Assembly (NCBI GenBank): GCA_965205905.1
Contig: CBDBHZ010000013.1
Coordinates: forward strand, 209,571 to 273,570
Length of the DNA: 64,000 nt
Source of the DNA: Alphaproteobacteria bacterium
Lineage (GTDB): Bacteria > Pseudomonadota > Alphaproteobacteria > JABAAW01 > JAHZMA01
Reading direction: 5' to 3'
Positions 10,974-61,100 of this stretch are shown piece by piece. Within the stretch, counting starts at the first letter, position 1, and the number at the start of each line of letters is the position of its first letter. A model generated the notes under the pieces. The model was not told the origin of the DNA. It searched no databases and saw nothing but the letters and a program-made list of their open reading frames with translations. Both the position numbers and the translations under genes were made by a program.

Positions 10974-12149
10974 TTAATTACGCATAGCTTGGGCTAAATC
11001 ATCGCATAAATCTTGAACATCTTCAAGCCCTACTGATAGCCTCACCGAATTTGGCAGAATGCCTAACCGCAACCGTTGTTCTTCTTCTAACCGCTGATGG
11101 GTCATGGTGGTTGGATGGTTTATTAGGCTTTTGGTATCGCCCAGATTATTAGATATATCAATCACTTGCAAGCTGTTGACGAATTTGAAAAGCTCTGCCC
11201 TATCGCCATCATAGTCGAAGCTAATCAGCGTGCTGCCCATGCTCATCTGTTGCATGGCTAGCTTATATTGCGGATGGCTTGGCAAAGCAGGATAGCGCAC
11301 TGCTTTTATTTTTTGATGGCTTTCCAAAAATTCAGCAATCTTATGGGCAGCATGGCTTTGCGCCTCAACCCTTAAGCGCAATGTTTCTAATCCTTTTAGC
11401 ATCACCCATGCGTTAAACGGGCTCATAGATGGACCTGTATGGCGCACGAATGAAAGCAAATGCTCATCAAGAAATTCTTGTGAACATAGAATTGCACCGC
11501 CTAAACACCGCCCCTGCCCATCAATATGTTTGGTGGTGGAATAGACAACAATATCCGCGCCTAATTCCAATGGTTTTTGCAAAATTGGCGTGGCGAATAC
11601 ATTATCAACCACCAAGCGCGCACCTGCTTGATGCGCTAAATCGGCAATCATGCGAATATCTAACACTTCTAGCAGAGGATTTGAGGGGGTTTCCAAAAAC
11701 ACGGCTTGCGTAGGCTTGCTTAATGCTTGTTCCCAATCCGCTTTATCGTTACCAAGCACAGATACGGTTTCTATGCCGTAACGCGGTAAAATATCGTTAA
11801 TAATATAGTCGCAAGACGAGAATAATGCTTCAGATGCCACGACGCGGTCGCCTTGTTTTAAGAAACAAGCCATCGATGCAAACACTGCCGCCATGCCAGT
11901 AGCAGTTGCGAAACAAGTTTCTGCCCCTTCCAACAATGCCATGCGGTTTTGAAACATTTCCACAGTTGGGTTGCCATAGCGCGAATAGACGTAATGGTCA
12001 ATCTCTTGCTTAAAGCTTGCCTCTGCTTGCTCTACCGATTCGTAAACATAGCCAGAATTCAGAAATAACGCTTCGGAAGTCTCATCAAAATTGCTACGGG
12101 CGATACCGCCACGCACTAAAATTGTATCAATATTTTGCTTTTTTGCCAT
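10974..12149 (-). CDS. metZ: O-succinylhomoserine sulfhydrylase / Cys-Met-metabolism PLP enzyme
   Basis: 391 aa of the PLP-dependent cystathionine gamma-synthase family (VVYSTTKHIDGQGRCLGG). Confidence 0.8.
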   Translation of the reverse strand: MAKKQNIDTILVRGGIARSNFDETSEALFLNSGYVYESVEQAEASFKQEIDHYVYSRYGNPTVEMFQNRMALLEGAETCFATATGMAAVFASMACFLKQGDRVVASEALFSSCDYIINDILPRYGIETVSVLGNDKADWEQALSKPTQAVFLETPSNPLLEVLDIRMIADLAHQAGARLVVDNVFATPILQKPLELGADIVVYSTTKHIDGQGRCLGGAILCSQEFLDEHLLSFVRHTGPSMSPFNAWVMLKGLETLRLRVEAQSHAAHKIAEFLESHQKIKAVRYPALPSHPQYKLAMQQMSMGSTLISFDYDGDRAELFKFVNSLQVIDISNNLGDTKSLINHPTTMTHQRLEEEQRLRLGILPNSVRLSVGLEDVQDLCDDLAQAMRN

Positions 12150-12331
12150 GTCTTACACTCATAATATTATCTATTGCCACAGATGCTAACAGATTTGATA
12201 GTTTTTTGCTAGAAATTTTTATAGTAATTATCATTGCTGAATTTTGTTTATTTTTTCAGCAAATATGTTATAGTGGTCTCTCATTTGGTAAGTTGATATA
12301 TCAATGCAAATATAAAGTTTCAAGATAGTCT

Positions 12332-15223
12332 ATGCGACAATTTATTTTATCCATTATCACATTATTAATATTTTCTTTGTTATTAGTCGGTTGTAGCCTT
12401 GATAGCATCGTTAATGATGCCGTTGATTGTGTAACCGATATTAATGTTGCGCTCAATATTTGCAATGGTGATGATAATGATAATCCAAAGAATGGTGCTG
12501 TTAGCAATAATAATGCTGGTGATAACAATAATAATGGCGGTGGCGACAGCAGCACTGGTGGTGGCGATAACAACGGAGGCGGTGATAATAATAATGGTTA
12601 TGGCATCAGCATTATCGAAAACATTCATACCGCCACGCCCATAAATTTTAATCAGCATGATTTAATCAGTTTTACTGATGAAAATCGTAACAACAAAAAA
12701 AACAATGCTTTACCAATCAATGCTGTGCAAATAACAAAAAACACTGCTACTGATAATGAGGCAATCATCACTGATAAAATCAAGGATGCGGTGGTTGATT
12801 TTGATTATGCGAATAACGGTAAATTTACCAATACAGGATTAAGATTATATTTTGCTGATAAAAAATATCAAATAACTTCCGGTATCGGCCGTGCAGAACA
12901 AATTGAGAGCGCGAGCGTTATCAGTGATAGTGGTGATAATCCTGATGATTTCATCATAGATAGGCGCGCCTCTATCTTTGGCTTTGCGGTCAATCACATG
13001 GCATTGGTAACTTTTCATGTGATGAAAGATGACTATAAAACGCAATTCTATGCCATCACGGGTTATGAAACCGATGCAAGCAAGATACCCATCACTGGCA
13101 TCAGCAAATTTATCGGCACAGGGCGGGGCAAATATTATTCTACGACTGCTGGCTATAATACCATGTTTGATATAGAAGCCGATATTAATTTTGGCAGCCA
13201 GATGATTGATTTAAGTGGCACGAATACATGTCTGTTGGGGAGTGTTTGCAGTCAGAGTGCCAATCAAAAATATGACCTTAATTTTACCACCTCACTCAAA
13301 TATTATACAGGAAAAAATATATTTAACGGCTTGATTGAGACAAAAGGTGGCGAGTCGCAACCAGCATTATCAGGTAATATTGATGTTAATTTTTATGGTA
13401 ATAATGCATCGGAATTCGGTGGCACATTCGCCCTAAAAAATACCTTGCAAGAGGGTGATGCAGGCTATATTGGCTGGTTCGGCGCTATCACTTACACATT
13501 AAACACAAACCATGCTGATACGCCCACAATATTTAATCAACATGGTTTAACCAGTTTTAACGATAATGCCCGCAAAGGCACAAGAAATAATGCCTTTAAA
13601 GCCAGTGCGGTGCAAATCATAAAATATGAAAGCACGGGCAATATCACGCTTAATACAATCAATGGTTCTGTGGTTGAATTTGATTATAAGGATAATGGCG
13701 AATTTGCTGATGAGGGCTTAACATTATATTTTACCGATAAAAAATATGAAATCACCAACGGTATCAGCTATCAGCATTCCATCAATGATTATCAAACCGA
13801 TAGTGATGATGCCGATAATCCTAGCAATTTTGAACTGTTCAGGCGTGTCTTTCATTACGGCTTTACATCAAACCATATGGCATTGGTAACATGGCGGGTA
13901 TATGATGCCGATAATTATGAAAGTTACTTTTATGCTATCACTGGCTTTGAAACAGCGGGTAACGCGCTTCCTAAAACTGGCAGCGCCATGTTTACAGGCG
14001 AAGGGCGAGGGCGATATTATAGCGCAAGCAAGAATATTAATACTTATTTTGATGTGCAGGCAGATGTTGATTTTGGCAACAGAACAGTCAATCTGACTGG
14101 CACAAATTCTTATGATAGTGCTGACCTTAATTTTACCAGTCTGTTACGCTATGATGCCGAACAAAACCTGATAAAAGGTGAGTTTGAAACTGTGGGCGGT
14201 AACAGCTATTCACAATTATTAGGCACGGCAGAGGCAAGGTTTTATGGCATAGGTGATAATGCGGTAAAAGAATTTGGTGGCACATTTGATGCAAAAAATA
14301 ATCAAGCAGGCTATATCGGTTATTTTGTAACAGGTGAAAATTATATCATTGCCACTCCTGCTATAACTGCAATCACGCGTGCCGATATTCCTAAAATGCT
14401 TAATCAACATGGCTTGGCTTCTTTTGTTGATGAGAATCGGCATGACACAGAAAATAATGCCTTACAAACCGCACCTATTGTTGAGATAATTAAAAATGAT
14501 GATAATAAAACAATCAGCACCCATCAAATCAATGATGCTATCGTGGAATTTGACCATGATAGTGAGGGTGATTTTGCTGATACGGGCTTAACATTATATT
14601 TTGCTGATAAAAAATACGCGGTTATAGCGGGCACTGGCACTGATTATAATATCGTTGGCAGTAGCTTTGATAGTGATAATGCCCAGAGCCTCGATAGGCA
14701 AATCAGCACATTTGGTTTAGAGAGACGTTGGGACTATTTTGGTGAACCACATCCTACTTATATGGCATTGATTCATTGGACAGTGGAAGAAAATGACTAT
14801 AAAAGCAAAGGCTTTGCCATAGCAGGATACGAAACAAGCGGTGATGCTATTCCTACCCCTACCATAGTTGGCATTACTCAATTTACTGGCAAGGGGCTTG
14901 GGCGATACCATTCTACCCACATTAACTATGATACCGAGTTTAATGTAACTGCCAATGTTGATTTTAGCGCAACCACAGTGAATTTAATCGGGACAGATGA
15001 AAATCATGCCTCGCTGGATTTTACTGCCAGCTTAACATATCAAGCAGGTATAAACGACATCACGGGCAATATTGAAACTGTGGGTGGTGGCGATTACGCA
15101 AAATTATCTGGAGGCGCCAATGCCAGATTTTACGGACCTAACACAGAAGAATTAGGTGGCACATTTTCTATGCAAAATGATGACGCGGCTTATATCGGCT
15201 ATTTCGGTGCGAAAGAGCAGTAA
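12332..15223 (+). CDS. large surface lipoprotein with three tandem TbpB/fHbp-like lobes (handle plus 8-strand barrel)
   Basis: Lipobox LLVGC|S, an N/G/D-rich linker, then three roughly 290-aa repeats. Each repeat ends in the barrel signature ...FYG.NA.EFGGTF...AGYIG(W/Y)FGA. Confidence 0.65.
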   Translation: MRQFILSIITLLIFSLLLVGCSLDSIVNDAVDCVTDINVALNICNGDDNDNPKNGAVSNNNAGDNNNNGGGDSSTGGGDNNGGGDNNNGYGISIIENIHTATPINFNQHDLISFTDENRNNKKNNALPINAVQITKNTATDNEAIITDKIKDAVVDFDYANNGKFTNTGLRLYFADKKYQITSGIGRAEQIESASVISDSGDNPDDFIIDRRASIFGFAVNHMALVTFHVMKDDYKTQFYAITGYETDASKIPITGISKFIGTGRGKYYSTTAGYNTMFDIEADINFGSQMIDLSGTNTCLLGSVCSQSANQKYDLNFTTSLKYYTGKNIFNGLIETKGGESQPALSGNIDVNFYGNNASEFGGTFALKNTLQEGDAGYIGWFGAITYTLNTNHADTPTIFNQHGLTSFNDNARKGTRNNAFKASAVQIIKYESTGNITLNTINGSVVEFDYKDNGEFADEGLTLYFTDKKYEITNGISYQHSINDYQTDSDDADNPSNFELFRRVFHYGFTSNHMALVTWRVYDADNYESYFYAITGFETAGNALPKTGSAMFTGEGRGRYYSASKNINTYFDVQADVDFGNRTVNLTGTNSYDSADLNFTSLLRYDAEQNLIKGEFETVGGNSYSQLLGTAEARFYGIGDNAVKEFGGTFDAKNNQAGYIGYFVTGENYIIATPAITAITRADIPKMLNQHGLASFVDENRHDTENNALQTAPIVEIIKNDDNKTISTHQINDAIVEFDHDSEGDFADTGLTLYFADKKYAVIAGTGTDYNIVGSSFDSDNAQSLDRQISTFGLERRWDYFGEPHPTYMALIHWTVEENDYKSKGFAIAGYETSGDAIPTPTIVGITQFTGKGLGRYHSTHINYDTEFNVTANVDFSATTVNLIGTDENHASLDFTASLTYQAGINDITGNIETVGGGDYAKLSGGANARFYGPNTEELGGTFSMQNDDAAYIGYFGAKEQ

Positions 15224-22686: not shown

Positions 22687-23943
22687 TGCAACATAATATC
22701 GCCAATCGCACTATTTTTTGTAAAGATAATATTGATATATTGCAAGGCATTGATAGTGAATCGATTGATTTGATTTATCTTGACCCACCTTTTAACAAGA
22801 AGAAAACTTTTACCGCCCCTATTGGTAGCTCTGCAGAGGGTGCCGCGTTTAAGGATATATTCAAGCAAGAAGATGTTAAAAGCGAATGGCTACAAACGAT
22901 TCAGGAAGATAAAGATAATATATTCAATCTGTTAGAGGCGGTTAAAAATATCGAAGGCAAAACTTCTTACAATTTTTGTTATCTTGCCTATATGGCGATT
23001 AGATTGATAGAATGCCATCGCGTGTTAAAAGAGACAGGAAGCCTTTATCTGCATTGCGATTCCACCATGAGCCATTATCTCAAATTATTGCTTGATTGCA
23101 TCTTTGGTGAGAAAGAATTTCCGCAACGAAATTATCTGGGGCTATAGAACGCAAGGGGTTAGCATGAAATGGTGGCCTAGAAAGCACGATAATATCTTTA
23201 TGTATGTGAAAAAGCCGAATTACACTTATACACCAACGATGGAACGGCAACATTATGCCAAGCCATTCAGGCACACAAAAACCGATGATGACGGCAAATT
23301 TTATGCCGATACCTATTTGCGTGATGTATGGGACCATGATGAAACCAAACCTAGAATCAGCCAATCAGCCGAGCGCACGGGTTACCCTACGCAAAAGCCA
23401 TTGGCGTTATTGGAACGCATCATCACTGCATCAAGCAATGAGGGCGATATTGTGCTAGACCCTTTTTGTGGTTGCGCCACCACTTGCGTTGCTGCCGAAC
23501 GGTTGAACCGAAAATGGATTGGCGTTGATGTGTCAGTCAAAGCATTCGAATTGGTGAAAGAAAGATTGGCACACGAAGTAGAATGGGGCGGTAGTCTGTT
23601 TCAGGAAGAATTGGTGGCGTTCCAAACCAAAGCACCGAAGCGCACGGATAGGGGCGAGGATTATATTCTTAAAAAGAGCGTTTATATTATCTCTAACCCG
23701 CAATATCCTGATGATTATAAGGTCGGCATCGCATCTGATGTTCATAGCCGTCTTAATAGCTATCAAACCAGCGACCCTAACCGAAATTATCGGCTTGAAT
23801 ATCATCTGGAAACACCGCATTTCCGCGCCATAGAGGCGTATATTCATCAAAAATACGCTAACAAACATGAATGGGTGCAGGGCGCGTTAAAAAGCATCAT
23901 TGCCGATATTAAAGATAAAGATATGGCAATGAAAAAGGGGTAA
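22683..23943 (+). pseudogene. N6-adenine (beta-class) DNA methyltransferase fused to a T5orf172/GIY-YIG-like C-terminal domain; frameshifted at about 23105-23147
   Basis: DPPF motif in ORF 22683..23147, and the NFRNEIIW and TQKP...LDPFCG motifs in ORF 23092..23943. The frameshift is a +1 within GAGAAAGAA. Confidence 0.7.
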
Positions 23944-27660: not shown

Positions 27661-27943
27661 CATGGGAACAACGAAATCAGGGTAAAACAATACATTTAGC
27701 ACTTATTTTAACCATAAATCCGAACAAACAAAAAGTTATCCACAGGTTTACTACTTTTTCACAAAGTGTTCTTGATTTGTGTAATAAACTTATGGTAGAT
27801 TAGAAATAAGCCCATTGCGCCCCTCAATAACCGAACCGAATGGCAACCAAAAAACTTCACTATTTTTAATTTCCGCATCATGCGTTTGCGGATAACGTAA
27901 CCTTATGCCCAACTTATGGACATTTTATATAGGAGGACTCATT

Positions 27944-29584
27944 ATGAGTGCTATTGACGTCTTAACCCAAAAACTATCAGGCAGTAACAAGCAAAAAGCA
28001 TGTGATTGTTGCGAAAAACTTGCCAAACGGCAATCTGTCTCACCCAATATCGTGAAAGATGCTTATCAGCAAATCAACAAAAGCGCGCCCAATATCACCG
28101 ATAGGCAGGCATGCGATATGCTGATAACCCTATTCGTTAAGGGCGAGGCTTTATCTACCAAAGAAGAGGAAATCTTAAAGTTTCTTAATCAATCAACCAA
28201 AACCATCACCCAAATATCGCAACCCATGCAGTTTGCGCCCATTTTTAACATTGTGCAGAAAACCAAAAACCAACCAAATTATTTCCGCCCATTAGGTAAG
28301 GTGAATCAGTTTTTCAATCATTTAAGCAACCAAGCCGATTTTAAGAAACTGCTAACGGCGGTCGGCTCTTTATCTCTCACCAAGGAAGAAATCACTGAAT
28401 TGATGGCGGCGCAATATCAGCCAAACTATAGCCCTTCATCACGCACCGATGGGTTAATTAAAGCCATTGATAGAGCGGGAAAGCTTTCGGCACTGCCCGA
28501 AAAAGCGTTTCATAATCTCACCACCCATATCGGCAAAAAGTTTAAGTTTAGCGATATTAATATCAAAAATTTGCAGACTATAGAAAGTGGCAATAAAGGC
28601 AACGATGAATTAAATAATGCACTTTACAACGCCTTTCAGGATAAAAGCAATATTCAATATATGCCGAAAAAAACCAGAGAGCTGTTGCAACCCATCCATA
28701 ATGAGATTCTGAAAGCAAAGATGGAGGATTACACTAAAACTATTGGCACACTTAATGTTTCGCCATCGGTGCATACGCGATTACATGGTTATCAGGCTTT
28801 GTTAATCGATATAGAACAGGGCAAGAAAAAGCCTAGTACGGCTGACCTTGAAAAACTTAATTTGCTATATAATGAATTAAAAAGCCTTGGCAAGCTTGAT
28901 GCCATGCCGAACCGCACGCAAGCCTATCTAGAAAATTACCGTCTGGAACAAGATTTGAAGAAGAAAGCCCCGTTGAATGTTGGTAAATTGCTGGAAAAAT
29001 TAAAACGCGGTGAGACATTGGGAGTTTTTCAAGCTTTTTATCTCAGCAGTCATGCGCCAGATGAGCTTAAAAAACACTGGAAAAATGAAAAAAACCAAAA
29101 ACAATTAGAAACATTATCAAAAGATGTGCGTGATAAGGCGGCAGAAATCAAGAATTTAGATAAATCTGCATTGCTTGAGAGTTTCGAGAAAATCATCGAG
29201 CAAATTCGTGCCGAGCAAGGCAGGGCATCTAACCGCAGATTCTATGTTCCTGCATTGGGCGTTTATATCCAACTTACTGGAAATTTTATGGAATTGCGCT
29301 TCAGGAATAAAGATTTTGGCGGAGTATATAAAGAGACGATGAAGCAAGTAATTAAAGATTCAAAAGATAAAAGTTTGGATGAAATTACCAAAAATCTGCA
29401 ACAATTCAAACTTGTCTATCACAGAGGTTTGGATTTTACGGGTGCCAATCTTAAAACCGATGGCAGTGTGCGCTATATCAAGGATAGTGAGGTTAACCCG
29501 ACAATTTCAAAGGTGTTGGATGTTTCAACGAAAACAACAAGAAGTGGCAAAAAAACCAAAGCCATCACTATTTTAGAAATATAA
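27944..29584 (+). CDS. hypothetical protein (546 aa) with no recognisable domain
   Basis: AGGAGG Shine-Dalgarno 7 nt upstream of the ATG at 27944. The ORF is AT-rich and its stop overlaps the next start. Confidence 0.5.
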   Translation: MSAIDVLTQKLSGSNKQKACDCCEKLAKRQSVSPNIVKDAYQQINKSAPNITDRQACDMLITLFVKGEALSTKEEEILKFLNQSTKTITQISQPMQFAPIFNIVQKTKNQPNYFRPLGKVNQFFNHLSNQADFKKLLTAVGSLSLTKEEITELMAAQYQPNYSPSSRTDGLIKAIDRAGKLSALPEKAFHNLTTHIGKKFKFSDINIKNLQTIESGNKGNDELNNALYNAFQDKSNIQYMPKKTRELLQPIHNEILKAKMEDYTKTIGTLNVSPSVHTRLHGYQALLIDIEQGKKKPSTADLEKLNLLYNELKSLGKLDAMPNRTQAYLENYRLEQDLKKKAPLNVGKLLEKLKRGETLGVFQAFYLSSHAPDELKKHWKNEKNQKQLETLSKDVRDKAAEIKNLDKSALLESFEKIIEQIRAEQGRASNRRFYVPALGVYIQLTGNFMELRFRNKDFGGVYKETMKQVIKDSKDKSLDEITKNLQQFKLVYHRGLDFTGANLKTDGSVRYIKDSEVNPTISKVLDVSTKTTRSGKKTKAITILEI

Positions 29585-30264
29585 TGAAAATAACTGATAA
29601 GATGCGGTTAACCAGTTTTAGGCATCTCTCTCAATCCTTTGTTGTAAAAGGGCAAATCATCAGTAGCACCCATAAAATTGGCTCTGTTATGAAAGATGAT
29701 GGCACAAATGAACATTCCCATATTGAACAAAGAATTGTTGATTTTGCCAAAGTAAGAGAAGCAGTAGGCGCAAATAATAAAGAAATCATTAATGATGCCA
29801 TCATCAATTACCTCAACACACATATTGAAAATAAATGGAAGGAGAGACGAAAAGGTGAGTTTAAGCAATCTGAATTTCTAAAAACAATCAATCCCATGTC
29901 GAATATTGGTGAGAAAGATTTTGTTGGTCTATTTGCGCCATCTAGCAATATTGCCAATCAAATCCGCATCTATGCCAAAAAAGATTGGGATGAACGCGCT
30001 AGTAATATTATCAAAGCCAATAATGCCAACACTGTTGACGAAATTTATAAGGCAATTCATAGTGCCACCTTGCGTGATATACTCACCCTAAAAGCCATGA
30101 TTGATGTGCTATTAAGAATGAAATTGATGTTAGAAACAGTTGGTGAAAAAACTGATTTCTTAAACAAGACCATTCAAAAAGCGCAAAAAACGAAACTGGA
30201 TTTAGAGGATTCTTTTGAAAAAATATTTAAAAACATGAAAATCAAATTCATTGAACAAAAATAA
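29584..30264 (+). CDS. hypothetical protein (226 aa), translationally coupled to the upstream ORF
   Basis: ATAATGA stop/start overlap and an AT-rich sequence. Confidence 0.5.
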   Translation: MKITDKMRLTSFRHLSQSFVVKGQIISSTHKIGSVMKDDGTNEHSHIEQRIVDFAKVREAVGANNKEIINDAIINYLNTHIENKWKERRKGEFKQSEFLKTINPMSNIGEKDFVGLFAPSSNIANQIRIYAKKDWDERASNIIKANNANTVDEIYKAIHSATLRDILTLKAMIDVLLRMKLMLETVGEKTDFLNKTIQKAQKTKLDLEDSFEKIFKNMKIKFIEQK

Positions 30265-30302
30265 AATTTGACAAATTTTTTCCTTTCAACTAAGATGGTA
30301 AG

Positions 30303-30867
30303 ATGAAATATAAAGCATCTTACCATACTTTTTTCACTGTTAGCTATTCTAACATACGTTGTGATATTGCCAGTAAAAAATATTAATGCAACTGACGCTG
30401 AAAAAGCTGATGTGCAACATTTATTTTTTAAAACTTTTTTGGACATGACATATTATAGTCTTGGGCTGAATGATAATATGGATATTGCAAAAGAAATTCT
30501 AAAATTAGAAGATTTAATCGCGCAAGGCGCCAACCCAAATAAAAAATTTGTATTCCCTAGTGACAGTGATGGAGAAAGTTTGGTTACACCTATATCTTAT
30601 ATATTTACGACATGTCGTAATGATCATTACATAGAGGATGCTGGTGGTAAAAATTTTTATTTAGAAATTATAAAATTATTGATTGATAATGGCATAGAGT
30701 GGAATGCTAAAATTTATTACGAAAACGATGATGGCACTTCAGGGTCATATACCATTGCCGATAGAATCAGATGGCTAGAAGAAAATCCGAGCAACAAACC
30801 AGAATGTATCGAAGCGCTAGCTTATGTCAAAACCCACCTCAAAGAAAACAACATCATCATTGAATAA
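30303..30867 (+). pseudogene. secreted short ankyrin-repeat-like protein, paralog 1 (N-terminal frameshift)
   Basis: Conserved promoter and hairpin upstream. The ATG at 30303 is followed by a 1-bp insertion (aaatATaaag versus aaatTaaag). The remaining ORF 30361..30867 retains the ANK-like core and the PECIEALAYVKTHLKENNIIIE tail. Confidence 0.55.
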
Positions 30868-30914
30868 TAAAACCTCGCGGTTGCTCAACACAAAAACCGT
30901 GCGTGTCGCGATAC

Positions 30915-31082
30915 ATTAATATATGGTGGGCTTTGCGGAGTTGGTTTATATATCAAGGGGGGTGCGAACGCGCTTTATCGGTCGCGAGACTTACGTCCGC
31001 TTCCTTGCGCTTTCGGTTTGCCCTTGCACCAATGGCGGGCAAACCTCACCCTTAATAATCCCCCCGCTGTGTTTAATACTGG
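30915..31082. repeat. MITE-like repeat copy
   Basis: atatatggtgggctttgcgg...gcgaacgcgctttatcggtcgcgagacttacgtccgc...ccccccgctgtgtttaatact. Confidence 0.7.
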
Positions 31083-31161
31083 CGGTGGAGTGTATCGCCC
31101 CATACCCCCACGAACAAAAATAAAGTTTGACAAATTTTTTCTTTTCAACTAATATGGTAGG

Positions 31162-31795
31162 ATGAAATTAAAGCATCTTACCATATCTTTTTTAACATTC
31201 GCTATTCTATCATATGTTGTATTTATGGTGATAGAAAATAATGCTGTAATAGAAGCTGAAAAAATGGCAGAAGCTAGAAAAATTGAAAAAGCTCTGATAG
31301 CTGAAAAAATGATAGAAGCTAGAAAAATTGAAAAAGCTAATGTGCAAAATTTATTTGATAGACTTTTTACAGAAACGATACGGTATACTTATGGGCTTGA
31401 TTATGATACCGATATTCCAAAAGCAATTTTAAAATTAGAAAATTTAATTGCACAGGGTGCCAATCCAAATAAAAGAATCATACACGCCGTGGATGGTAGT
31501 GGTTATGTGGATACACCTATATCTTATACTTTTCTTGCATGCAATAATGATAGTTATATAGATGATGCTGATGGTAGAAATTTTTATTTAGAAATTATAA
31601 AGTTATTGATTGATAATGGTGTGGATTGGAATGCTAAAAATTATTATGAGAGCGAAGATACTTCAGGAACAACAAACTATTGCTGACACGCTCAAAAGAA
31701 TGGAAGATGAAGCTGAAAAACGTAACCCAGAATGTATCGAAGTGCTAGCTTATGTCAAAAACCACCTCAAAGAAAATAACATCATCATCGAATAA
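31162..31795 (+). pseudogene. secreted short ankyrin-repeat-like protein, paralog 2 (internal frameshift near 31610-31686)
   Basis: Signal anchor, an EARKIEKA repeat insertion, the ANK-like core, then a frame switch into the conserved C-terminus. Confidence 0.55.
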
Positions 31796-31873
31796 TAACC
31801 GATTATTGGGGTTATTCGCAATCAGTGGTAACAGATATTTGACAAACCTAATTCTATAACTTAATATGGTAAG

Positions 31874-32479
31874 ATGAGAGTAAAATACCATCTTACCATA
31901 TTTTTTTCACTATTCGCTATTCTAGCATATGTTGTATTATTGCCAGTCAAGAATATTAATGCAACTGAAGCTAGAAAAGCTAAGGCAATAGAAGCTGAGA
32001 GAATTGCAAAGGCTAGAGAAGCTGATGTGCAAACTTTTTATGAAATTTTTTTAGATATAACGCAAAGTGGTTATGGAATTGATTCTGATATGTATACTGC
32101 AGAAACAATTTCAAGGTTAGAAACTTTAATTGCACAGGGTGTCAACCCAAACAGGAGTTTTGAACTCCCTAGTGACGGTTATGGAAAAGGCTTTGTTACA
32201 CCTATATCTCATATACTTCTTACATGCACTAATGATAGGTACCTAAATGACGCTGATGATAGAAATTTTTATTTAGAGATTATAAAATTATTGATTGATA
32301 GCGGTGTGAAATGGAATGCTAAAAATTCTTATGATGGCTATCATTATGGTGAATCAGGTGAATCAACCATTGCCGATAGCCTAAGATGGACAGAAGAGAA
32401 CGCGCATAAACCAGACTGTCTCGAAGCGATAGATTATGTCAAAACCCACCTCAAAGAAAATAACATCACGCTAGAATAA
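31874..32479 (+). CDS. secreted short ankyrin-repeat-like protein, paralog 3
   Basis: N-terminal hydrophobic anchor, the ANK-like LIAQGVNPN...TPISHILLTC...EIIKLLIDSGVKWNAKN, and a conserved C-terminus. Confidence 0.6.
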   Translation: MRVKYHLTIFFSLFAILAYVVLLPVKNINATEARKAKAIEAERIAKAREADVQTFYEIFLDITQSGYGIDSDMYTAETISRLETLIAQGVNPNRSFELPSDGYGKGFVTPISHILLTCTNDRYLNDADDRNFYLEIIKLLIDSGVKWNAKNSYDGYHYGESGESTIADSLRWTEENAHKPDCLEAIDYVKTHLKENNITLE

Positions 32480-32525
32480 TAAAACCTCGCGGTTACTCAA
32501 CACAAAAACCGTGCGTTTCTCATCA

Positions 32526-32690
32526 CATTAATATATGGGGGCTTTGCGGTTTAGGTTTTATATATCAAGGGGGGGGGCGAACGCATTAATTTATGGGGGG
32601 CTTTGCGGCATACGCTTTGGCGGTTATGTCCGTAGGACAACCGCCACGCGATGACGCCCCCCATACCCCCCACCGCTGTGTTTAATACTC
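32526..32690. repeat. MITE-like repeat copy (variant internal module, G10 tract)
   Basis: Shares termini with the other copies. Confidence 0.6.
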
Positions 32691-32729
32691 ATATCTAGCT
32701 TGCCTTGATAATTCTTACCTAAATAAAAT

Positions 32730-32790
32730 TTGACAAATTTTTTCCTATAACTTAATATGGTAAGATGAAATTAAAGCATCTTACCATATT
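32730..32790 (+). promoter_or_regulatory. conserved promoter (TTGACA-17-TAATAT) plus a start-codon hairpin of ank paralog 4. The same module sits at 30268-30330, 31127-31195 and 31839-31905.
   Basis: Perfect -35 hexamer, 17-bp spacer and a -10 six to seven nt before the ATG. The inverted repeat atggtaagATG...catcttaccat encloses the start codon. Confidence 0.6.
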
Positions 32791-49632: not shown

Positions 49633-50319
49633 ATGCAGTGGTGTTGGTTTATTGAAAGGTTACTTACTTTTATGTGGGATAGAAAAAAAATATTTGAAAG
49701 ACTGATAGGCTATATTATTTTTATGCCTGATACAAATAATTTTTTAAAAAACCTAATTAGTAAAAATTGGATACTTATATCTTGTGTTCTTTTTGGTGGG
49801 CTTTTCTATTTTTTATTTTTCTCTTACTTTGATGTATCACCGCACCCCATACTTAATTCTAAAATAAAGTATGAAAATGATATAAATGTTAATGATTTAG
49901 TCACCATTCTTTTAACTGCCGTTACAGTTGTTTTAACAGCAGTAGCTGTTATTATAACGCTTTTAGCTATTTGGGGATATAAAAATATCAAAAAAGAATC
50001 AATTGATAAATCGAGTGAAAAATCAATTGAACGTGTTGAAAATAGCATGAGAGAAGGTGGTGAATTACACAAACTTTTAACAAGTAGAATAAAAACAGAA
50101 TTTACAGAATATGCTCCAATTCAAGATTACATTGATGGTATTGTGAGTAGAGCTGTAGAGACTAAAATCGAAGAACATAATGCTAAATTTGAAGAAAACA
50201 TTTATGATGCTATCATGGAAAACGTAGAAGATAAAATTACAGAACATGATAGTATTATTGATAATAAAATTGCTAAGGCAATAGAAGAACGCCACCATGA
50301 TGGTAATATAGACTATTAA
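49633..50319 (+). CDS. two-TM membrane protein with an acidic coiled-coil C-terminus (island gene 1)
   Basis: Very AT-rich ORF ending 13 bp upstream of the ImmA-like gene. Confidence 0.45.
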   Translation: MQWCWFIERLLTFMWDRKKIFERLIGYIIFMPDTNNFLKNLISKNWILISCVLFGGLFYFLFFSYFDVSPHPILNSKIKYENDINVNDLVTILLTAVTVVLTAVAVIITLLAIWGYKNIKKESIDKSSEKSIERVENSMREGGELHKLLTSRIKTEFTEYAPIQDYIDGIVSRAVETKIEEHNAKFEENIYDAIMENVEDKITEHDSIIDNKIAKAIEERHHDGNIDY

Positions 50320-50331
50320 GAGATATAAAAA

Positions 50332-50847
50332 ATGACAGAAATTAAAAAAAATCACTCTAAAGAATGGAATAATTTGCCTGAGAAAACACAGGACATCATT
50401 AAGAAATATCAAAAGGTTGATATGCCAAAAGTTCCTGTAGGTAAAATTGCACAAGAGTTGGGATTAATAGTAAAATCTTCTTCTTTACCTGTCCGTATAT
50501 CAGGTGAAATACGCCCAGATGGAAATGAATTTATTATCCGCATCAATAGGCATGAAGCGAAACAACGTCAACGCTTTACCTTAGCCCATGAAATATCTCA
50601 CTATTTGTTACATAGAGATAAAATTAACGATGGTATCGAAGATAATGTGCTATACCGTTCTCAACTTAGCAATATTCAAGAACATGAAGCCAATCGCCTT
50701 GCCGCTGACATTCTTATGCCATGGGAAATTATAGAAGCGCAGTTAGAAGGAAAAAACAAAGATGATGAAAATACTATTGAAGAAATAGCCAGTGTTATGG
50801 AAATTTCTACTGTTGCCCTAAGAATTAGGTTAGGTATTAAAATATAA
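50332..50847 (+). CDS. ImmA/IrrE-family zinc metallopeptidase (island gene 2)
   Basis: HEISHYLLH (HEXXH) preceded by the typical ImmA/IrrE N-terminal region; 171 aa. Confidence 0.7.
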   Translation: MTEIKKNHSKEWNNLPEKTQDIIKKYQKVDMPKVPVGKIAQELGLIVKSSSLPVRISGEIRPDGNEFIIRINRHEAKQRQRFTLAHEISHYLLHRDKINDGIEDNVLYRSQLSNIQEHEANRLAADILMPWEIIEAQLEGKNKDDENTIEEIASVMEISTVALRIRLGIKI

Positions 50848-50849
50848 AG

Positions 50850-51968
50850 ATGGTGGATTTCAAAAATATTCCATATATACCTATTTTAACAACACGACCT
50901 GCAGAGCTTACTGCTTTACGCGAGTTACCTACTAGTGATAAAAAGAAATTGATGCCTGCAATACAATTACGACCATGGCTAACTTCAAAAGAATTTGATA
51001 ACACAATTGCTAAAATAGACGAAGCCTATGGCAATAATAGAGAATGGATAAGCAATCTTGATGAATATTATGAAGAACCACTGCCAAACCCAGAACAACC
51101 ATCCAAAGACACAAGACCTGCAATAACAACTTTTAAATCGCTTTTAGAACCTGCAAATGGTTATGAGAATTGGTGTGCTTTTGTTGAAAAACACCCTAAT
51201 ATGATACCATGTGTGCAATTAAGCGCAATAGAACAACTTGAAGAACAACTAAAAAAACTCTTAAATTTAAACCGTGGTGTTGTTTTCCATCTCGATGGAA
51301 AACATAAAGAAAAATTACAAGAATATAAAAATAACTTTGATATAATCTTTGAAATTCTTAAGAAAAACCAAGCAGCTTCAAATATTCTTTTTATTATTGA
51401 TTTTAAAACAATTACAAACACACAAGATATTTTAATCCTATTCGGTTATTGGAACGACCTTATTACGAAAATATTGAAAAATTCTTATAGCATTGCAATT
51501 TCAGGGACAAGTTTTCCATCAAGCTTTACAGATGCGCCACTTAGTCTGGCAATAAAAGAAAGAAAAATATATGAACTTATAAATAATGATAATAATGGTA
51601 ATATTATTTATAGCGACAGGGGTAGCACACGTATCAATGAGAAAAGGCAACAAGGTGGTAGCAAACCAATACCGCGTATAGATTATCCCGTTAAAAATGA
51701 CTGGCATTTCTTTAGAGAAAATAAAGAAACTAATTATAATACGCTTGCCAAACAAGCCATTGAATCTAGTAATTGGGATAATAAACTATTCCTTTGGGGA
51801 ACAGAATTAATTAAAGCTACTGCTAGTTCCAATAAATTGTTAGATATAATCAGTAGCCCAGTAAAAGCTACTGCTGTAAGAATTAATATCCACCTGCATA
51901 TGCAACTATTTTATAACGATGATGATAGTAATGCCTATTTAGAGACGGATGATGATTGGGAAGATTAG
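50850..51968 (+). CDS. hypothetical 372-aa protein (island gene 3), translationally coupled to the ImmA-like gene
   Basis: 3-bp intergenic gap and AT-rich sequence. I recognise no domain. It should be compared with the Pfam Beta_protein family. Confidence 0.45.
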   Translation: MVDFKNIPYIPILTTRPAELTALRELPTSDKKKLMPAIQLRPWLTSKEFDNTIAKIDEAYGNNREWISNLDEYYEEPLPNPEQPSKDTRPAITTFKSLLEPANGYENWCAFVEKHPNMIPCVQLSAIEQLEEQLKKLLNLNRGVVFHLDGKHKEKLQEYKNNFDIIFEILKKNQAASNILFIIDFKTITNTQDILILFGYWNDLITKILKNSYSIAISGTSFPSSFTDAPLSLAIKERKIYELINNDNNGNIIYSDRGSTRINEKRQQGGSKPIPRIDYPVKNDWHFFRENKETNYNTLAKQAIESSNWDNKLFLWGTELIKATASSNKLLDIISSPVKATAVRINIHLHMQLFYNDDDSNAYLETDDDWED

Positions 51969-51972
51969 AAAG

Positions 51973-52710
51973 TTATTTTTCGCCAATAGAAATTGGGTTG
52001 CCAAAAATATTTTCTTTTGATTGTAGTGAAAGATAATACATATACATATCATCACATTCTTGTTCCTGATTAACGACTCTTGAATGATATGGATATTTTC
52101 TTAATGAATTTATATCGTCTATATTAATATCTCTTGACACAAGCGCTTCTTTAACCTGATTTGTGATTTCGCGGTGTTGATTTTTTAATTTTTGTAAAAC
52201 ATGTTGACGTAAAATTGTTGCACTTAAACTCATAGCTAAATTCTGTAACTCTAACCTTTTACAATGACTCGCTTTAATTTTATTTTTGGACAAAATCGTT
52301 TTTAAGTCTGCAACAGTGAGCATTTTTATCAAAATGGTTTTATTCAATAATTTTTCTGATTTGCCTTTTCTTATTACCTTAATTCCCTTTTCAGGGCAAA
52401 ACTCCCATACAGCAACTTTTTGAGGTGTGGTATTTAATACATGTTCAGAATGGCAAGGCGCACATATGATATGAAGCTTATCACAAAATTTTAGAAAATC
52501 TTCAACTTGCCCTGATAGACGAGATAAATTATCTGCCTCTGTTTTTATCTCAAAAAAGTATAAAGAATTATTGATAAGAGCAATATCAATCCGCCTTGCA
52601 AAAGAATCAACAACCAATTCATTTGCAATAAAATTATCATTTGTATGATTCTTTTCCAGCAAATATTGAATAAGTTTTGCTTTTACCAGTTTTTCGTGTC
52701 CATTTCTCAT
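51973..52710 (-). CDS. PD-(D/E)xK nuclease-like protein (island gene 4, convergent)
   Basis: ELVVDS...RIDIALINNSLYFFEIK fits an E/D...D...ExK restriction-endonuclease-fold motif. Confidence 0.45.
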   Translation of the reverse strand: MRNGHEKLVKAKLIQYLLEKNHTNDNFIANELVVDSFARRIDIALINNSLYFFEIKTEADNLSRLSGQVEDFLKFCDKLHIICAPCHSEHVLNTTPQKVAVWEFCPEKGIKVIRKGKSEKLLNKTILIKMLTVADLKTILSKNKIKASHCKRLELQNLAMSLSATILRQHVLQKLKNQHREITNQVKEALVSRDINIDDINSLRKYPYHSRVVNQEQECDDMYMYYLSLQSKENIFGNPISIGEK

Positions 52711-52761
52711 AGTCTAACTATATAGCATTAAAACTATTAATGTAACAAAAAAAATTCTACC

Positions 52762-52789
52762 TTGCATTTCCACCGCTAACCCTATATAC
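52762..52789 (+). promoter_or_regulatory. candidate sigma70-type promoter (TTGCAT-15/16-TATATA) facing a gene-free region
   Basis: Near-consensus hexamers. Downstream there are only two intrinsic terminators and no ORF. Confidence 0.3.
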
Positions 52790-53020
52790 TTACATCATCG
52801 TTTGAAAAGATTTCGAGCGTGGGGCTTAGTAACCTCTTACATAATTCGGTTGCATCAATCGATATTGACGCTTTTTTCGTTACATTGTAATTTGCGTCAA
52901 GGATGCACCGTTCTCAGCTTGGCTGGGAAGCGGTGCTATATGTCCAAGCGCCTTGTTTTTTAATATTGTGCCAAAAAGCGTCGCGCCGTTTTTAATTATG
53001 TAAGCGGTTACTAATTCCCA

Positions 53021-53048
53021 GCTACTAGAGTTTTCTAGTAGCTTTTTT
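53021..53048 (+). terminator. intrinsic terminator hairpin with T-tract
   Basis: gctactagag-ttttc-tagtagc followed by tttttt. Confidence 0.5.
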
Positions 53049-53128
53049 GTTGATGCCTTGAAATTCTGTGCATTGATGAAACGCTTATTTGGTTAACAAC
53101 CGCTAATACAATAAAAACGGCGCGACTT

Positions 53129-53163
53129 CACCCCTCATTATTTTTGATGAGGGGTGTTTTTTT
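53129..53163 (+). terminator. intrinsic terminator hairpin with T-tract
   Basis: cacccctcat-tatttttg-atgaggggtg followed by ttttttt. Confidence 0.6.
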
Positions 53164-53251
53164 GATGGCGGTGTTTGTTGCAGGTGTATAATACATAGGG
53201 CGGTGCATGGGTCGAGATTCGTCAACACAAAAACCATGCCTGCCTCCACAC

Positions 53252-53395
53252 ATTAATTATATGGGGGGCTTTGCGGAGTCGTTTTATGTATCAAGGGGGG
53301 TGCGAACGCGCTTTATCGGTCGCGAGACTTACGTCCGCTTCCTTGCGCATACCCCCCTTGATAATCCCCCCGCCGTACCAAATACTGGCGGTGGT
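53252..53395. repeat. MITE-like repeat copy
   Basis: Canonical core. Confidence 0.7.
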
Positions 53396-53439
53396 GAGTG
53401 TCTCGGTTACACAACACGCAGGCGGTGCGTTTCTCTCAA

Positions 53440-53889
53440 TCAATACAGCGAACGTAAAATTATTTTCATTTCTATGATAATTTTTACTTTCACATCATCA
53501 CATTTCTGTTTTGATATTTTGATACTATTTTTATCCGAGATATTATCATCAAGATGGCTATCATTAGCGCATGTTATAAGAAACTTCTTATATTCTATTT
53601 TACCACGATATGGTATTCTTAAAAATGTTCGTTTATTGTTAAACGCATCAACCAACGCATCTAATTCAGCAGATTTAATTTTCAATAAACGCCTATATTC
53701 ATTTAATGCCTGCGTGCTCACTGTGTCTTTATCAAGAAATATATTATCCCATTCGCTCAAAAGTTCCATTGATTTACTCATGATTTTATCCGCAAGTGTA
53801 TTCAAAGCATGTAAGCGCACGCTCAAATAATGGGCAACAAAAACACTGGTTACGGCAACAATAATGGATATGATGCTTTGATATAACAT
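53440..53889 (-). CDS. hypothetical membrane-anchored protein (149 aa)
   Basis: N-terminal TM helix in an AT-rich islet between two MITE copies, paired with the upstream DUF4325-like gene. Confidence 0.4.
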   Translation of the reverse strand: MLYQSIISIIVAVTSVFVAHYLSVRLHALNTLADKIMSKSMELLSEWDNIFLDKDTVSTQALNEYRRLLKIKSAELDALVDAFNNKRTFLRIPYRGKIEYKKFLITCANDSHLDDNISDKNSIKISKQKCDDVKVKIIIEMKIILRSLY

Positions 53890-53908
53890 GACTTAATTGA
53901 TAAAAAAA

Positions 53909-54286
53909 TCAGGAAGCTTGCTTATATTCTTTAAATATGTCTTTTATCATCTCGGCATATCGGGGGGTTTGTTTAGATATAAGAACAATATTTTTATATG
54001 GCATATTCATATCAAATAATTTTCCAAATGATTCATCTACAAAAGGAAAGAGATAGCCATCTGTGTCATCTAAATCAATAATCAGTTTCTCACCCTTTTT
54101 GAGGTTTTTCAGCGCAGGAATTAGAACATTATCTCTAAATTCTTCGCCCGAATTACGCCCTTGCCAACTGAAACGCGGACCGGGTGAAGAGCTAAAATCT
54201 TTAGCAATTTTGATAGTGTGAGGCATTTTTTTACCCTCCTGATTGATAATAATATTTAATTTACCAAAATTGAGAGTATTTTGCAA
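53909..54286 (-). CDS. DUF4325-like (STAS-like) small protein
   Basis: 125 aa with the pattern ...GEKLIIDLDDTDGYLFPFVDESFGKL, like the DUF4325 STAS-like family. Confidence 0.4.
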   Translation of the reverse strand: MQNTLNFGKLNIIINQEGKKMPHTIKIAKDFSSSPGPRFSWQGRNSGEEFRDNVLIPALKNLKKGEKLIIDLDDTDGYLFPFVDESFGKLFDMNMPYKNIVLISKQTPRYAEMIKDIFKEYKQAS

Positions 54287-58469: not shown

Positions 58470-58790
58470 TTGCAACTTGGTTGCAATTCTAGCGGATATT
58501 AATTGCGGAGGGGTTACAAGGGGCTTCCTTGCGTCAGCAAGGTCGTAAAGCCCCTTGCTAGCGAATTTTAGCTTTGCTAAAATTCTAGCGTATAATTAAT
58601 GAACGGAGGGGGTATAGGGGGCGTCTTGCCGATAAGGCAAGTCGTAAAGCCCCTTGCTAGCGAATTTTAGCTTTGCTAAAATTCTAGCGTATAATTAATG
58701 AACGGAGGGGGTATAGGGGGCGTCTTGCCGATAAGGCAAGTCGTAAAGCCCCCTACTAGCGAATTTTAGCTTTGCTAAAATTCTAGCGAA
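58470..58790. repeat. tandem array (about 3 units of about 96 bp) of a palindromic element (gctagcgaattttagctttgctaaaattctagcg core)
   Basis: Three near-identical units are visible by eye. The same palindrome occurs after tRNA-Phe (36660-36700). Confidence 0.7.
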
Positions 58791-60843
58791 TGTAACGTGC
58801 CCCGAACGCGCCTATATAGGTCTTGCTTGTGCCTTCAGTTAGCTTAAATGTGCCACCTGCTTCTTGTGCATCTGCGCCATAAAGCTTCATCACGGCTGTG
58901 CCATCGCTAAGATTAGCGTTACTCGTATCACCCCTAAACCATTTATGGTGGGGGTCATAATCCAAATCAGCATCAAAATCGAGGTCAGCTGCATCGCTTG
59001 AGGAAGTGCCAGTAAAGCCGTATGCAATGAACTGACTTGAAGAGATAGACGGCAATGATGTTTTGCGTGTGCCTGTAACCGCAAGAGTAGCAGAAGCATT
59101 CTCAAAATTAGCTACGATGGCTACCGTGCCACGCGTTAACATGGTGGTGCTACCTTCTGTGTAAAAACCATAGCTTTTGCCGTTAAAAGTGGCATTGCCA
59201 GTTCTTGGTCTATCATTGGTGGCTAAGCCTGTTGAAAAAACGCCAAAATCGCTGCCTTTTTTCCAAATACCAAGCGTCTGATATTGCCAATCTGTTGGGG
59301 TAATAGTGCCGCCGCCGCCGCCTACCTTTTCATCATCATGCAGCGCCAGCCAATCTGATGAGCCTGCTGATGTGTGATGAACACGTAAATCACCCCCTAC
59401 TTGGTCATCATCATCACCAATATGGAACCTAGTCGACGTAGGTCCGTTACTATCAAAAGTGCCAATATCGGTGTCAGTGCCATCAATCGCCTTTGATTTC
59501 AGAATAACACTATAAGATAAATTAGAGGCTAATTGCGTTATTCTTGCTGTTTGGCTGGTAATCTCACCTGCATTGCTAACACCAATCGCGTTATATGTTT
59601 TTGCAGAAATGCCGCTTCTGTTTAATTTATAATGCGTCAAAAAAGTCGCTGTGTCTGTATCCCCGAATATATACACGATGGGTGGAGGTATTCTGTTTGC
59701 CACCGAATACACCGTAATAATATTGCTCGCTGGCACTATCTATCATTGCAAATGTGCCACCCAATTCATCAGCCGCATTATCGCCTGTGCCATAAAAACG
59801 GGCTTCGGCAAAGCCTTCCATAGCATGCCACTGAAACAGTGCCGTTAATATTATTTTTTGCGGGTTCATAATTTAATTCGGCGGTAAAATCAAGATAAGA
59901 TAAAGGAAACTGATTCACGCAAGGATAAGTCACTACATTATCAAAGCATTGTATTGTATTTAAGGTTTTCAAGCCTATTGTGCGGGCAGAAAAATCAATA
60001 GTTGCTGTTAAGTCAAATGCAGGAGTGTAAGACAATGCTTCACTGTTGTAAACGCCATTACCTGTACCCTTAAACATAATCGTTTCAGTCATTTCGCCTA
60101 TCTTGGCATCTGATGTTTCTATGCCTGCAATGGCAAAACCGATATAGGAATTAAAATTATCAGTTGTCGTGGTTATATCATCAGGCAGAGATGCCGTAAA
60201 GGTGGCCCAAGCGCCAACTATCATATAGTTTGTTGTAAATTCAAACGCATCATCAAAGTAGCTGGTTGATTCTCTTGCTAGCACTTATAAAACTTAGAGG
60301 ATTATTGCTATTATCAATTTTTCCTACAAATTCTAGCTCATCACTGGTTTCAGTTAGGGTTAGAATTTGTTCACCATCATATGTGGCTGTATATGTTTGG
60401 TCAGCAACATAAAGGCTTGTTGAATAAATATATCCGTCTGTATCAAATGTTAGCGATAGACGGGGCGCAGTGATTTTGGAAATAATAATAGCATCTTCTG
60501 TAATATGGTTTTCATTCCATGATTCTGTGGGGTCAGAACGGTTAAAGGTTTGATTGAGATTGAATTGCACGGCAATAGCATCTAACACAAGCGTTTTCTT
60601 CTCATTCTCTTTTGCAGCTGCCGATGCCTCGTCAAGAGAATTATAAGTCAGATGTTCTATTGGCGGAATATCAGTATTTGTTGGAATATCATCACCGATA
60701 CTAATGCTATAAACCCTCACAATATCACCAACCTTAGCATCATTACCCGCTGGGCTATCATTGCTTGATGAAGAGCTAGTGCATGCCGCCAATAAAATGG
60801 CGCATGACAGCGATAATAAGAGGTTTTTACTTGAATGTAACAT
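58783..60843 (-). pseudogene. degraded third member of the multi-lobed TbpB-like lipoprotein family (four or more overlapping ORF fragments)
   Basis: N-terminal fragment with lipobox LLAAC|T at 60843. The fragments 59778..60284, 59627..59869 and 58783..59736 carry the FYG...GGTF...YIG.FGA barrel signatures. Confidence 0.6.
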
Positions 60844-60929
60844 CGGTTTTCTCCTTAACGATATGGAATATATAGATTAACACATAAACACTCTATTAGA
60901 AAAATAATAAAGAGTCAAGATTGATTATT

Positions 60930-61100
60930 TAAGGGGGTGAGGGTTGCGACTCCCTCAGTGTTACACACAGCGGTGGGGGTATGGGGGGCGTCTTGGCAAG
61001 AGAGCGGACGTAAGTCTCGCGACCGAAGCCAAGTCGCAAAGCCCCCCATATATAATGCAAAGCGCGTTCGCACCCCCCTTGATAATCCCCCCGCTGTGTT
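60930..61100. repeat. MITE-like repeat copy
   Basis: Canonical core. Confidence 0.7.

Follow-up and report, generated by a model that had tools for sequence, protein, structure and literature searches.

The 64-kb stretch of alphaproteobacterial DNA analysed here (contig CBDBHZ010000013.1; hereafter the window) carries three genes of one family of multi-unit lipoproteins, and the first of these, W1, an open reading frame (ORF) translating to 963 amino acids (aa; 12332..15223, +), is the main subject of this report. Its signal peptide ends in the lipobox LLLVGC (aa 16-21), which fits the pattern [LVI][ASTVI][GAS]C and has the cleavage context MRQFILSIITLLIFSLLLVGC followed by S; by this criterion W1 is a predicted bacterial lipoprotein. 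Since residue +2 is Ser and not the Asp of E. coli-type Lol avoidance, the E. coli rule gives no case for retention in the inner membrane. The tether that follows comprises a short segment with two Cys residues, which is kept in the orthologue P0001, and a low-complexity stretch rich in Asn, Gly and Asp (approximately aa 45-93). Behind it lie three tandem units, pairwise 42-46% identical (46% between lobes 1 and 2, 42% between lobes 1 and 3), a similarity well above chance level (BLASTP, E from 1e-65 to 1e-78). Each unit closes on a variant of the same signature, FYGNNASEFGGTF...AGYIGWFGA in the first, FYGIGDNAVKEFGGTF...AGYIGYFVT in the second and FYGPNTEELGGTF...AAYIGYFGA in the third, the shared motif being FYG...E[FL]GGTF...YIG.F. 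A first-pass annotation of this DNA had described a lipoprotein with a lipobox, such a linker and three units with this kind of end signature, and translation and BLASTP bear out each of these elements. The features of W1 and its two paralogs are collected in Table 1.

Table 1. Features of W1 and of its paralogs W2 and W3 in the window (HMM, hidden Markov model; nt, nucleotides).
Feature	Position	Strand	Basis or score
Upstream intergenic region	12150..12331	+	sigma-70-like promoter matches
Lipoprotein signal peptide with lipobox, aa 1-21, MRQFILSIITLLIFSLLLVGC	12332..12394	+	read from translation
Tether, aa 22-97: short two-Cys segment, then N/G/D-rich low complexity	12395..12622	+	sequence
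Lobe 1, aa 98-394, handle and 8-stranded barrel; barrel ~aa 257-387 (nt 13100-13492)	12623..13513	+	unit HMM 399 bits
Lobe 2, aa 395-672, handle and barrel; barrel ~aa 551-673	13514..14347	+	unit HMM 368 bits
Lobe 3, aa 673-963, and stop codon; barrel ~aa 848-962 (nt 14873-15217)	14348..15223	+	
W2, 1301-aa lipoprotein, lipobox LTAC, four units of the same type, intact	37851..41756	+	TbpB_B_D 53.6 bits; four unit-HMM hits of 304-342 bits
W3, a further family copy with lipobox LLAAC and ~2 units, in four pieces and three frames	58786..60876	-	unit HMM

Two candidate promoters upstream of W1, at 12143-12170 (TTGCCA-16-TATTAT) and 12206-12234 (TTGCTA-17-TATCAT), are matches to the consensus only. 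Slippage-prone repeats in the tether were considered and rejected, as its coding DNA shows a weak in-frame tandem repeat (21 bp x 2.5, at 12491-12542) and nothing further of the kind; this repeat could permit variation in tether length.

By sequence as well as by fold, W1 belongs to the TbpB_B_D superfamily. The Pfam model PF01298 (TbpB_B_D) matches it in three stretches with 54.7 bits against a gathering score of 26, and a search of the PDB with a profile built from 37 units gave significant matches to TbpB and LbpB only, which were marginal (E 8e-4 to 7e-3). The AlphaFold2 model of lobe 3, computed on the alignment of these 37 units, reached a mean predicted local distance difference test score (pLDDT) of 94 and a predicted template modelling score (pTM) of 0.91. 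Both its subdomains, handle and barrel, superpose on a solved TbpB lobe, and its nearest structural neighbors are TbpB, hemophilin, LbpB and HpuA; the profile match and the per-lobe fold that the first-pass annotation had proposed to check were both found. In the model of the full-length mature protein all three lobes are folded (mean pLDDT 83.5), the pTM is 0.44 and the linkers fall below a pLDDT of 50, so that the lobes resemble beads on a string. As the alignment behind this model is shallow (11 sequences only), it weakly suggests that the lobes have no fixed assembly; a rigid three-lobe rod finds no support in it.

W1 represents a large and largely undescribed family. A word-indexed search returned only 15 relatives, and the named ones among them, with three to six units, are all annotated as “transferrin-binding protein-like solute binding protein” of metagenome-assembled genomes (MAGs) labelled “Alphaproteobacteria bacterium”. 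In an exhaustive profile search of 1.84 billion representatives, 1,324 proteins passed a cutoff of E ≤ 1e-3; the number fell to 716 with a cutoff of 1e-10 and to 144, counted as clusters at 50% identity, with one of 1e-30. The largest member has 14 units in 4,491 aa. A lipobox is present at the N-terminus of nearly all of the 154 members examined. It had been thought unusual that W1 should have three lobes; within its own family, however, three is the commonest architecture (18/66 complete members, which range from one to ten units), making W1 a typical small member and no outlier. The novelty lies in the family. Within the literature searchable we found no match for chains of up to 14 lobes, for expansion to at least 14 such genes per genome, for variation in lobe number at a syntenic locus, for such a family without an adjacent gene of the type 11 secretion system (T11SS), or for its link to sponge-derived genomes.

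Several further members add to this picture of variety. The two largest relatives, P0016 and P0154 (4,491 and 4,497 aa), have 14 units each, and their first ~10 units belong to another subtype, for which the match to the unit profile starts only at about position 40-110. In P0009 an unrelated block of Gly/Thr/Asn-rich repeats (aa 340-650) is placed between lobes. Tandem arrays of family genes occur at other loci; one of them, at L014 1-13514 (ENA ERZ25069264 ctg6096_3x_l), runs head to tail, comprises four or more family genes (992, 1164, 958 and 1030 aa) as well as fragments, and sits on a single low-coverage contig of 28 kb. Within the window itself, W2 is identical to the public protein P0030, which is encoded on a contig of 278,247 bp, a length also recorded for the contig of family member P0009. 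W3 is broken: unit-HMM hits fall on the pieces 59781-60284, 59630-59872 and 58786-59739, and the N-terminal piece lies at 60256-60876. Its counterpart in a sponge MAG, at the syntenic locus L004 7736-11788, is intact and has four units; W3 is either a pseudogene or the product of an assembly frameshift.

The relatives also place the genome and reveal how the locus changes. The closest named relatives of LeuB are from the Rhodospirillales (63-66% identity), and the window DNA is 80-86% identical to an “Alphaproteobacteria bacterium” MAG, in agreement with the alphaproteobacterial assignment made at first pass. Closer LeuB relatives exist; one of them is encoded on a contig of 1.93 Mb that shows synteny with the window and suggests a genome of ~1.9 Mb. 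A scan of one genome per species gave 11 family loci, all in the sponge MAG Alphaproteobacteria bacterium X_S6_bin.7 (JAHZMA01); that only one species-representative genome matched is probably due to the narrow peptide patterns used, which came from a smaller unit alignment and may have missed other species. The loci of this genome hold 14 family ORFs of 2-11 units, 73.6 kb in total. JAHZMA01 is found among MAGs from the sponges Vazella and Haliclona, beside orders of nudibranch and coral symbionts whose genomes are ~1.9 Mb (PMC13393909, 2026).

One of these loci (L001) is collinear with the window, with 80-86% DNA identity in the housekeeping flanks, and here the number of lobes differs directly: between metZ and a rhodanese gene, X_S6_bin.7 has a seven-unit gene of 1,797 aa in place of the three-unit W1 of the window. 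Alignment at the level of identity seen in the flanks is confined to ~65 nt at the start and ~210 nt at the end of the two genes, and the 3' end of W1 is the part best conserved in DNA with both orthologue and paralogs. P0001 is a closer orthologue, with the same signal peptide and Cys anchor segment and at least six units. Units 2 and 3 of W1 have counterparts of 67-70% identity in it (lobe 2 is 67% identical to its unit 4), and recent duplication has given it three units that are 87-92% identical. The duplicates bear on the question of whether the three-unit structure of W1 could be an assembly artefact, or the gene non-functional: near-identical units such as occur in some relatives are prone to misassembly, the related genomes are MAGs, and the W3 copy is frameshifted. 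However, the W1 ORF is intact over 2.9 kb and its three lobes all fold confidently, while three-unit proteins resembling orthologues occur independently in many assemblies. Moreover, units that share only 42-46% identity could not have been collapsed or duplicated by an assembler, and we regard an artefactual or dead W1 as extremely improbable.

We consider W1 to be a modular, fast-diversifying lipoprotein of a symbiont-related lineage that serves as a surface binding protein or coat component, a reading to which we assign a probability of roughly 60%. In this scenario W1 would be anchored in the outer membrane by its lipid, with the flexible low-complexity tether preceding the mature lobes. 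These are three independently folded TbpB-type units in which a β-sheet handle is paired with a soluble barrel of eight strands, and short flexible linkers connect one unit to the next. The family is a lineage-specific and strongly expanded set of poly-lobe lipoproteins (1-14 lobes) of uncultured alphaproteobacteria related to the Rhodospirillales. Variable handles and barrel loops would touch external ligands, be they host, prey or nutrient molecules, and the repertoire would change as whole lobes are duplicated, lost or diverge and as whole genes are gained, lost or decay. Export could proceed through a T11SS/Slam-like system or by some other route. Both the binding function and a diversifying selection on the family are plausible on this evidence. 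To our knowledge, every characterised protein of the TbpB-type fold is surface-exposed or secreted. A secreted form, in which W1 would be a released hemophore-like or shed soluble binding protein, is very unlikely, given that W1, W2, W3 and nearly all other members have a lipobox Cys and not a type I signal peptide.

The structural neighbors could also point to a classical bipartite co-receptor for iron piracy of the TbpB, LbpB or HpuA type, which would pass host iron or heme protein cargo to a cognate TonB-dependent transporter under iron limitation. The nearest structures (TbpB, hemophilin, LbpB, HpuA) fit such a role, as does the likeness to TbpB of a lipidated N-terminus with a flexible anchor peptide. 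Yet the Pfam analysis of the window and related loci revealed no TonB-dependent receptor beside any of at least 16 family genes, and upstream of nine family genes no Fur box scored above background (10-13/19, the same as random 200-bp windows; 13/19 at best for W1), so that regulation through a Fur box was rejected. Three to 14 lobes and at least 14 paralogs per genome are ill-suited to a single receptor pair, and the sequence similarity to TbpB is marginal (E 8e-4). The differences extend to the architecture: TbpB and LbpB have two lobes, specialised as N and C, whereas the three lobes of W1 (1-14 in the family) are all of one type and share 13-21% identity with them. Unlike TbpB and LbpB, W1 has many paralogs and no adjacent TbpA-like receptor, Slam or Fur box, and whereas they come from vertebrate pathogens (Neisseriaceae, Pasteurellaceae, Moraxellaceae), the closest sequenced relative of W1 belongs to a sponge-associated alphaproteobacterium. 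We therefore hold an iron-piracy receptor to be distinctly unlikely.

The first-pass annotation reported no Slam gene in the window, and this stands: a Pfam scan of all ORFs of at least 400 aa that were not recognisable by translation, and of most ORFs of at least ~280 aa, detected no DUF560/SlipAM gene there, and a phmmer search with a verified alphaproteobacterial SlipAM outer-membrane protein (OMP) had no match among the ORFs of the window (stop to stop, at least 40 aa) and of loci L001-L012. Among the called genes of L012 and L014, the precomputed Pfam assignments include neither SlipAM nor a TonB-dependent receptor. Neither an ORF of 505 aa beside the L008 family gene nor one of 559 aa in the window matches a Pfam model or resembles SlipAM, and no neighboring Slam or TonB-dependent receptor was found as a partner in the window and related loci.

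A positive control for this search is provided by Salipiger sp. CCB-MM3, the single match, to the barrel only, when a plasmid collection was searched with the family. On its plasmid NZ_CP014597 (L013 7515-9637), the TbpB_B_D protein WP_066110826 is directly followed by WP_157374347, which is annotated merely as a “tetratricopeptide repeat protein” and which Pfam identifies as a SlipAM/TPR_Slam T11SS OMP; the two are an under-annotated alphaproteobacterial pair of cargo and secretin, and this OMP served as the phmmer probe above. WP_066110826 is 32% identical to W1 over the barrel and differs from it in being a single barrel of 292 aa with the T11SS OMP gene directly 3', a neighbor that W1 lacks. 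This pair, together with the T11SS OMPs present in the Sphingomonadaceae (PMC8406197) and known from the literature in the Roseobacteraceae/Rhodobacteraceae, contradicts the earlier premise that such proteins are restricted to Neisseriaceae, Pasteurellaceae and Moraxellaceae.

Several results weigh against a surface-displayed W1 in a symbiont. Known T11SS cargo often adjoins its Slam, and here no Slam/T11SS OMP was found in the 64-kb window or ~195 kb of related loci (Pfam on ~40 larger ORFs, and the phmmer probe). The slam_lipo equivalog (NCBIfam NF041636) scores 47.4 bits on W1, below its cutoff of 80. In TbpB the C-terminal barrel is the targeting domain; terminal and internal barrels of the family show no meaningful difference (identity 0.380 vs 0.373 for the barrel as a whole and 0.489 vs 0.495 for the last 45 positions), and these values give no clear sign of a specially conserved terminal barrel as targeting domain. 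Lastly, the sponge association is that of the closest sequenced relative. We infer surface exposure from the fold and from the extreme divergence between otherwise close genomes. W1 is neither demonstrably Slam-dependent nor, in all likelihood, an iron receptor of the TbpB type.

The same results lend weight to the main rival, in which W1 faces the periplasm as an outer-membrane lipoprotein that is delivered by Lol and never flipped, with a periplasmic binding or structural role and the TbpB fold reused without Slam. The lack of a Slam/DUF560 gene in the window and the fetched related loci, the equivalog score below cutoff and a terminal barrel without clear extra constraint speak for such a protein, and we consider it a serious, if rather improbable, alternative to the surface protein.

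Two described groups are close to W1 in architecture, the “Sphingomonas” and the “Psychrobacter surface proteins”. Both are predicted to be T11SS cargo, carry two to three handle-barrel copies and are known from bioinformatics alone (Grossman et al., 2025, Microb Genom 11:001406; PMC12282271). This in silico description, and the range of 1-14 lobes in the family here, overturn the premise that lobes of this kind come in ones or twos. Like W1, these proteins have tandem handle-barrel pairs behind a low-complexity N-terminus, are mostly lipoproteins and include one alphaproteobacterial group. W1 shares with them the architecture of three handle-barrel pairs and lacks both their Pro-Thr or PTD repeats at the N-terminus, in place of which its tether is N/G/D-rich, and the T11SS neighbor; they were found because they adjoin a cluster-1 T11SS OMP gene, which W1 does not. 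Their two to three copies also set them apart, by description, from a family with up to 14 lobes and at least 14 genes per genome. The remaining comparators, Hemophilin/HphA, fHbp, NHBA, HpuA and PmSLP-1, have a single lobe and bind heme, factor H, heparin, haemoglobin or factor I; none of their ligand sites is recognisable in W1.

The TbpB/fHbp fold is known almost wholly from vertebrate pathogens, in which it serves iron piracy and complement evasion and is the basis of licensed vaccines. In the present family the TbpB-type lobe is chained up to 14 times and spread over at least 14 genes in a small genome related to that of a sponge symbiont. If surface-exposed, the W1 family would provide prime candidate molecules for contact between uncultured symbionts and their hosts, and would offer a test of whether T11SS/Slam export copes with multi-lobe cargo of this great size or a different route is used. 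As a tentative extension, one that we think has some chance of being correct, the poly-lobe lipoproteins could be a hypervariable coat, or a repertoire for host interaction, on the surface of bacteria that live as symbionts in sponges and in other invertebrates of the sea. It would take up ~4% of a ~1.9-Mb genome and would vary as lobes are duplicated or lost and genes decay, in the manner of the variable surface lipoproteins of pathogens; its display might not need a canonical Slam next to the genes and might use a distant T11SS or a route undescribed in Alphaproteobacteria. For annotation, the label “transferrin-binding protein-like solute binding protein” in such MAGs conceals a distinct architecture.

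Gene content around the family varies as well. In the window, a conserved block is followed by a DNA methylase fused to a T5orf172 domain (23092-23943, +), and after the same block a related locus (L010 5124-8606) has a three-unit family gene. In a sponge MAG (L006 10008-13865) a Cas9 gene (HNH_4, RuvC_III, Cas9_a) lies directly 3' of an 11-unit family gene of 3,303 aa. A GC-rich, partly palindromic intergenic repeat (...GGGGCTTTGCGACTTGGCTTCGGTCGCGAG...CCCCCACCGCT...) occurs in the window at 60947-61091 and 42445-42535, with fragments near 27.58, 30.96, 32.66, 36.72-36.80, 49.41, 53.29-53.37 and 54.46 kb, and recurs in L002, L004 and L008 (three copies). It is dispersed both in this AT-rich genome and in that of the relative, and resembles an element of the REP (repetitive extragenic palindromic) or MITE (miniature inverted-repeat transposable element) type. 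The window also contains two islands of low GC content (0.32-0.39 vs ~0.43), at ~28000-34000 and 50000-54000, which may be mobile or defence islands; the first includes the 559-aa ORF mentioned above (27905-29584) and one of 226 aa, both without a Pfam match, and the second a PF14350 “Beta protein” gene (50850-51968).

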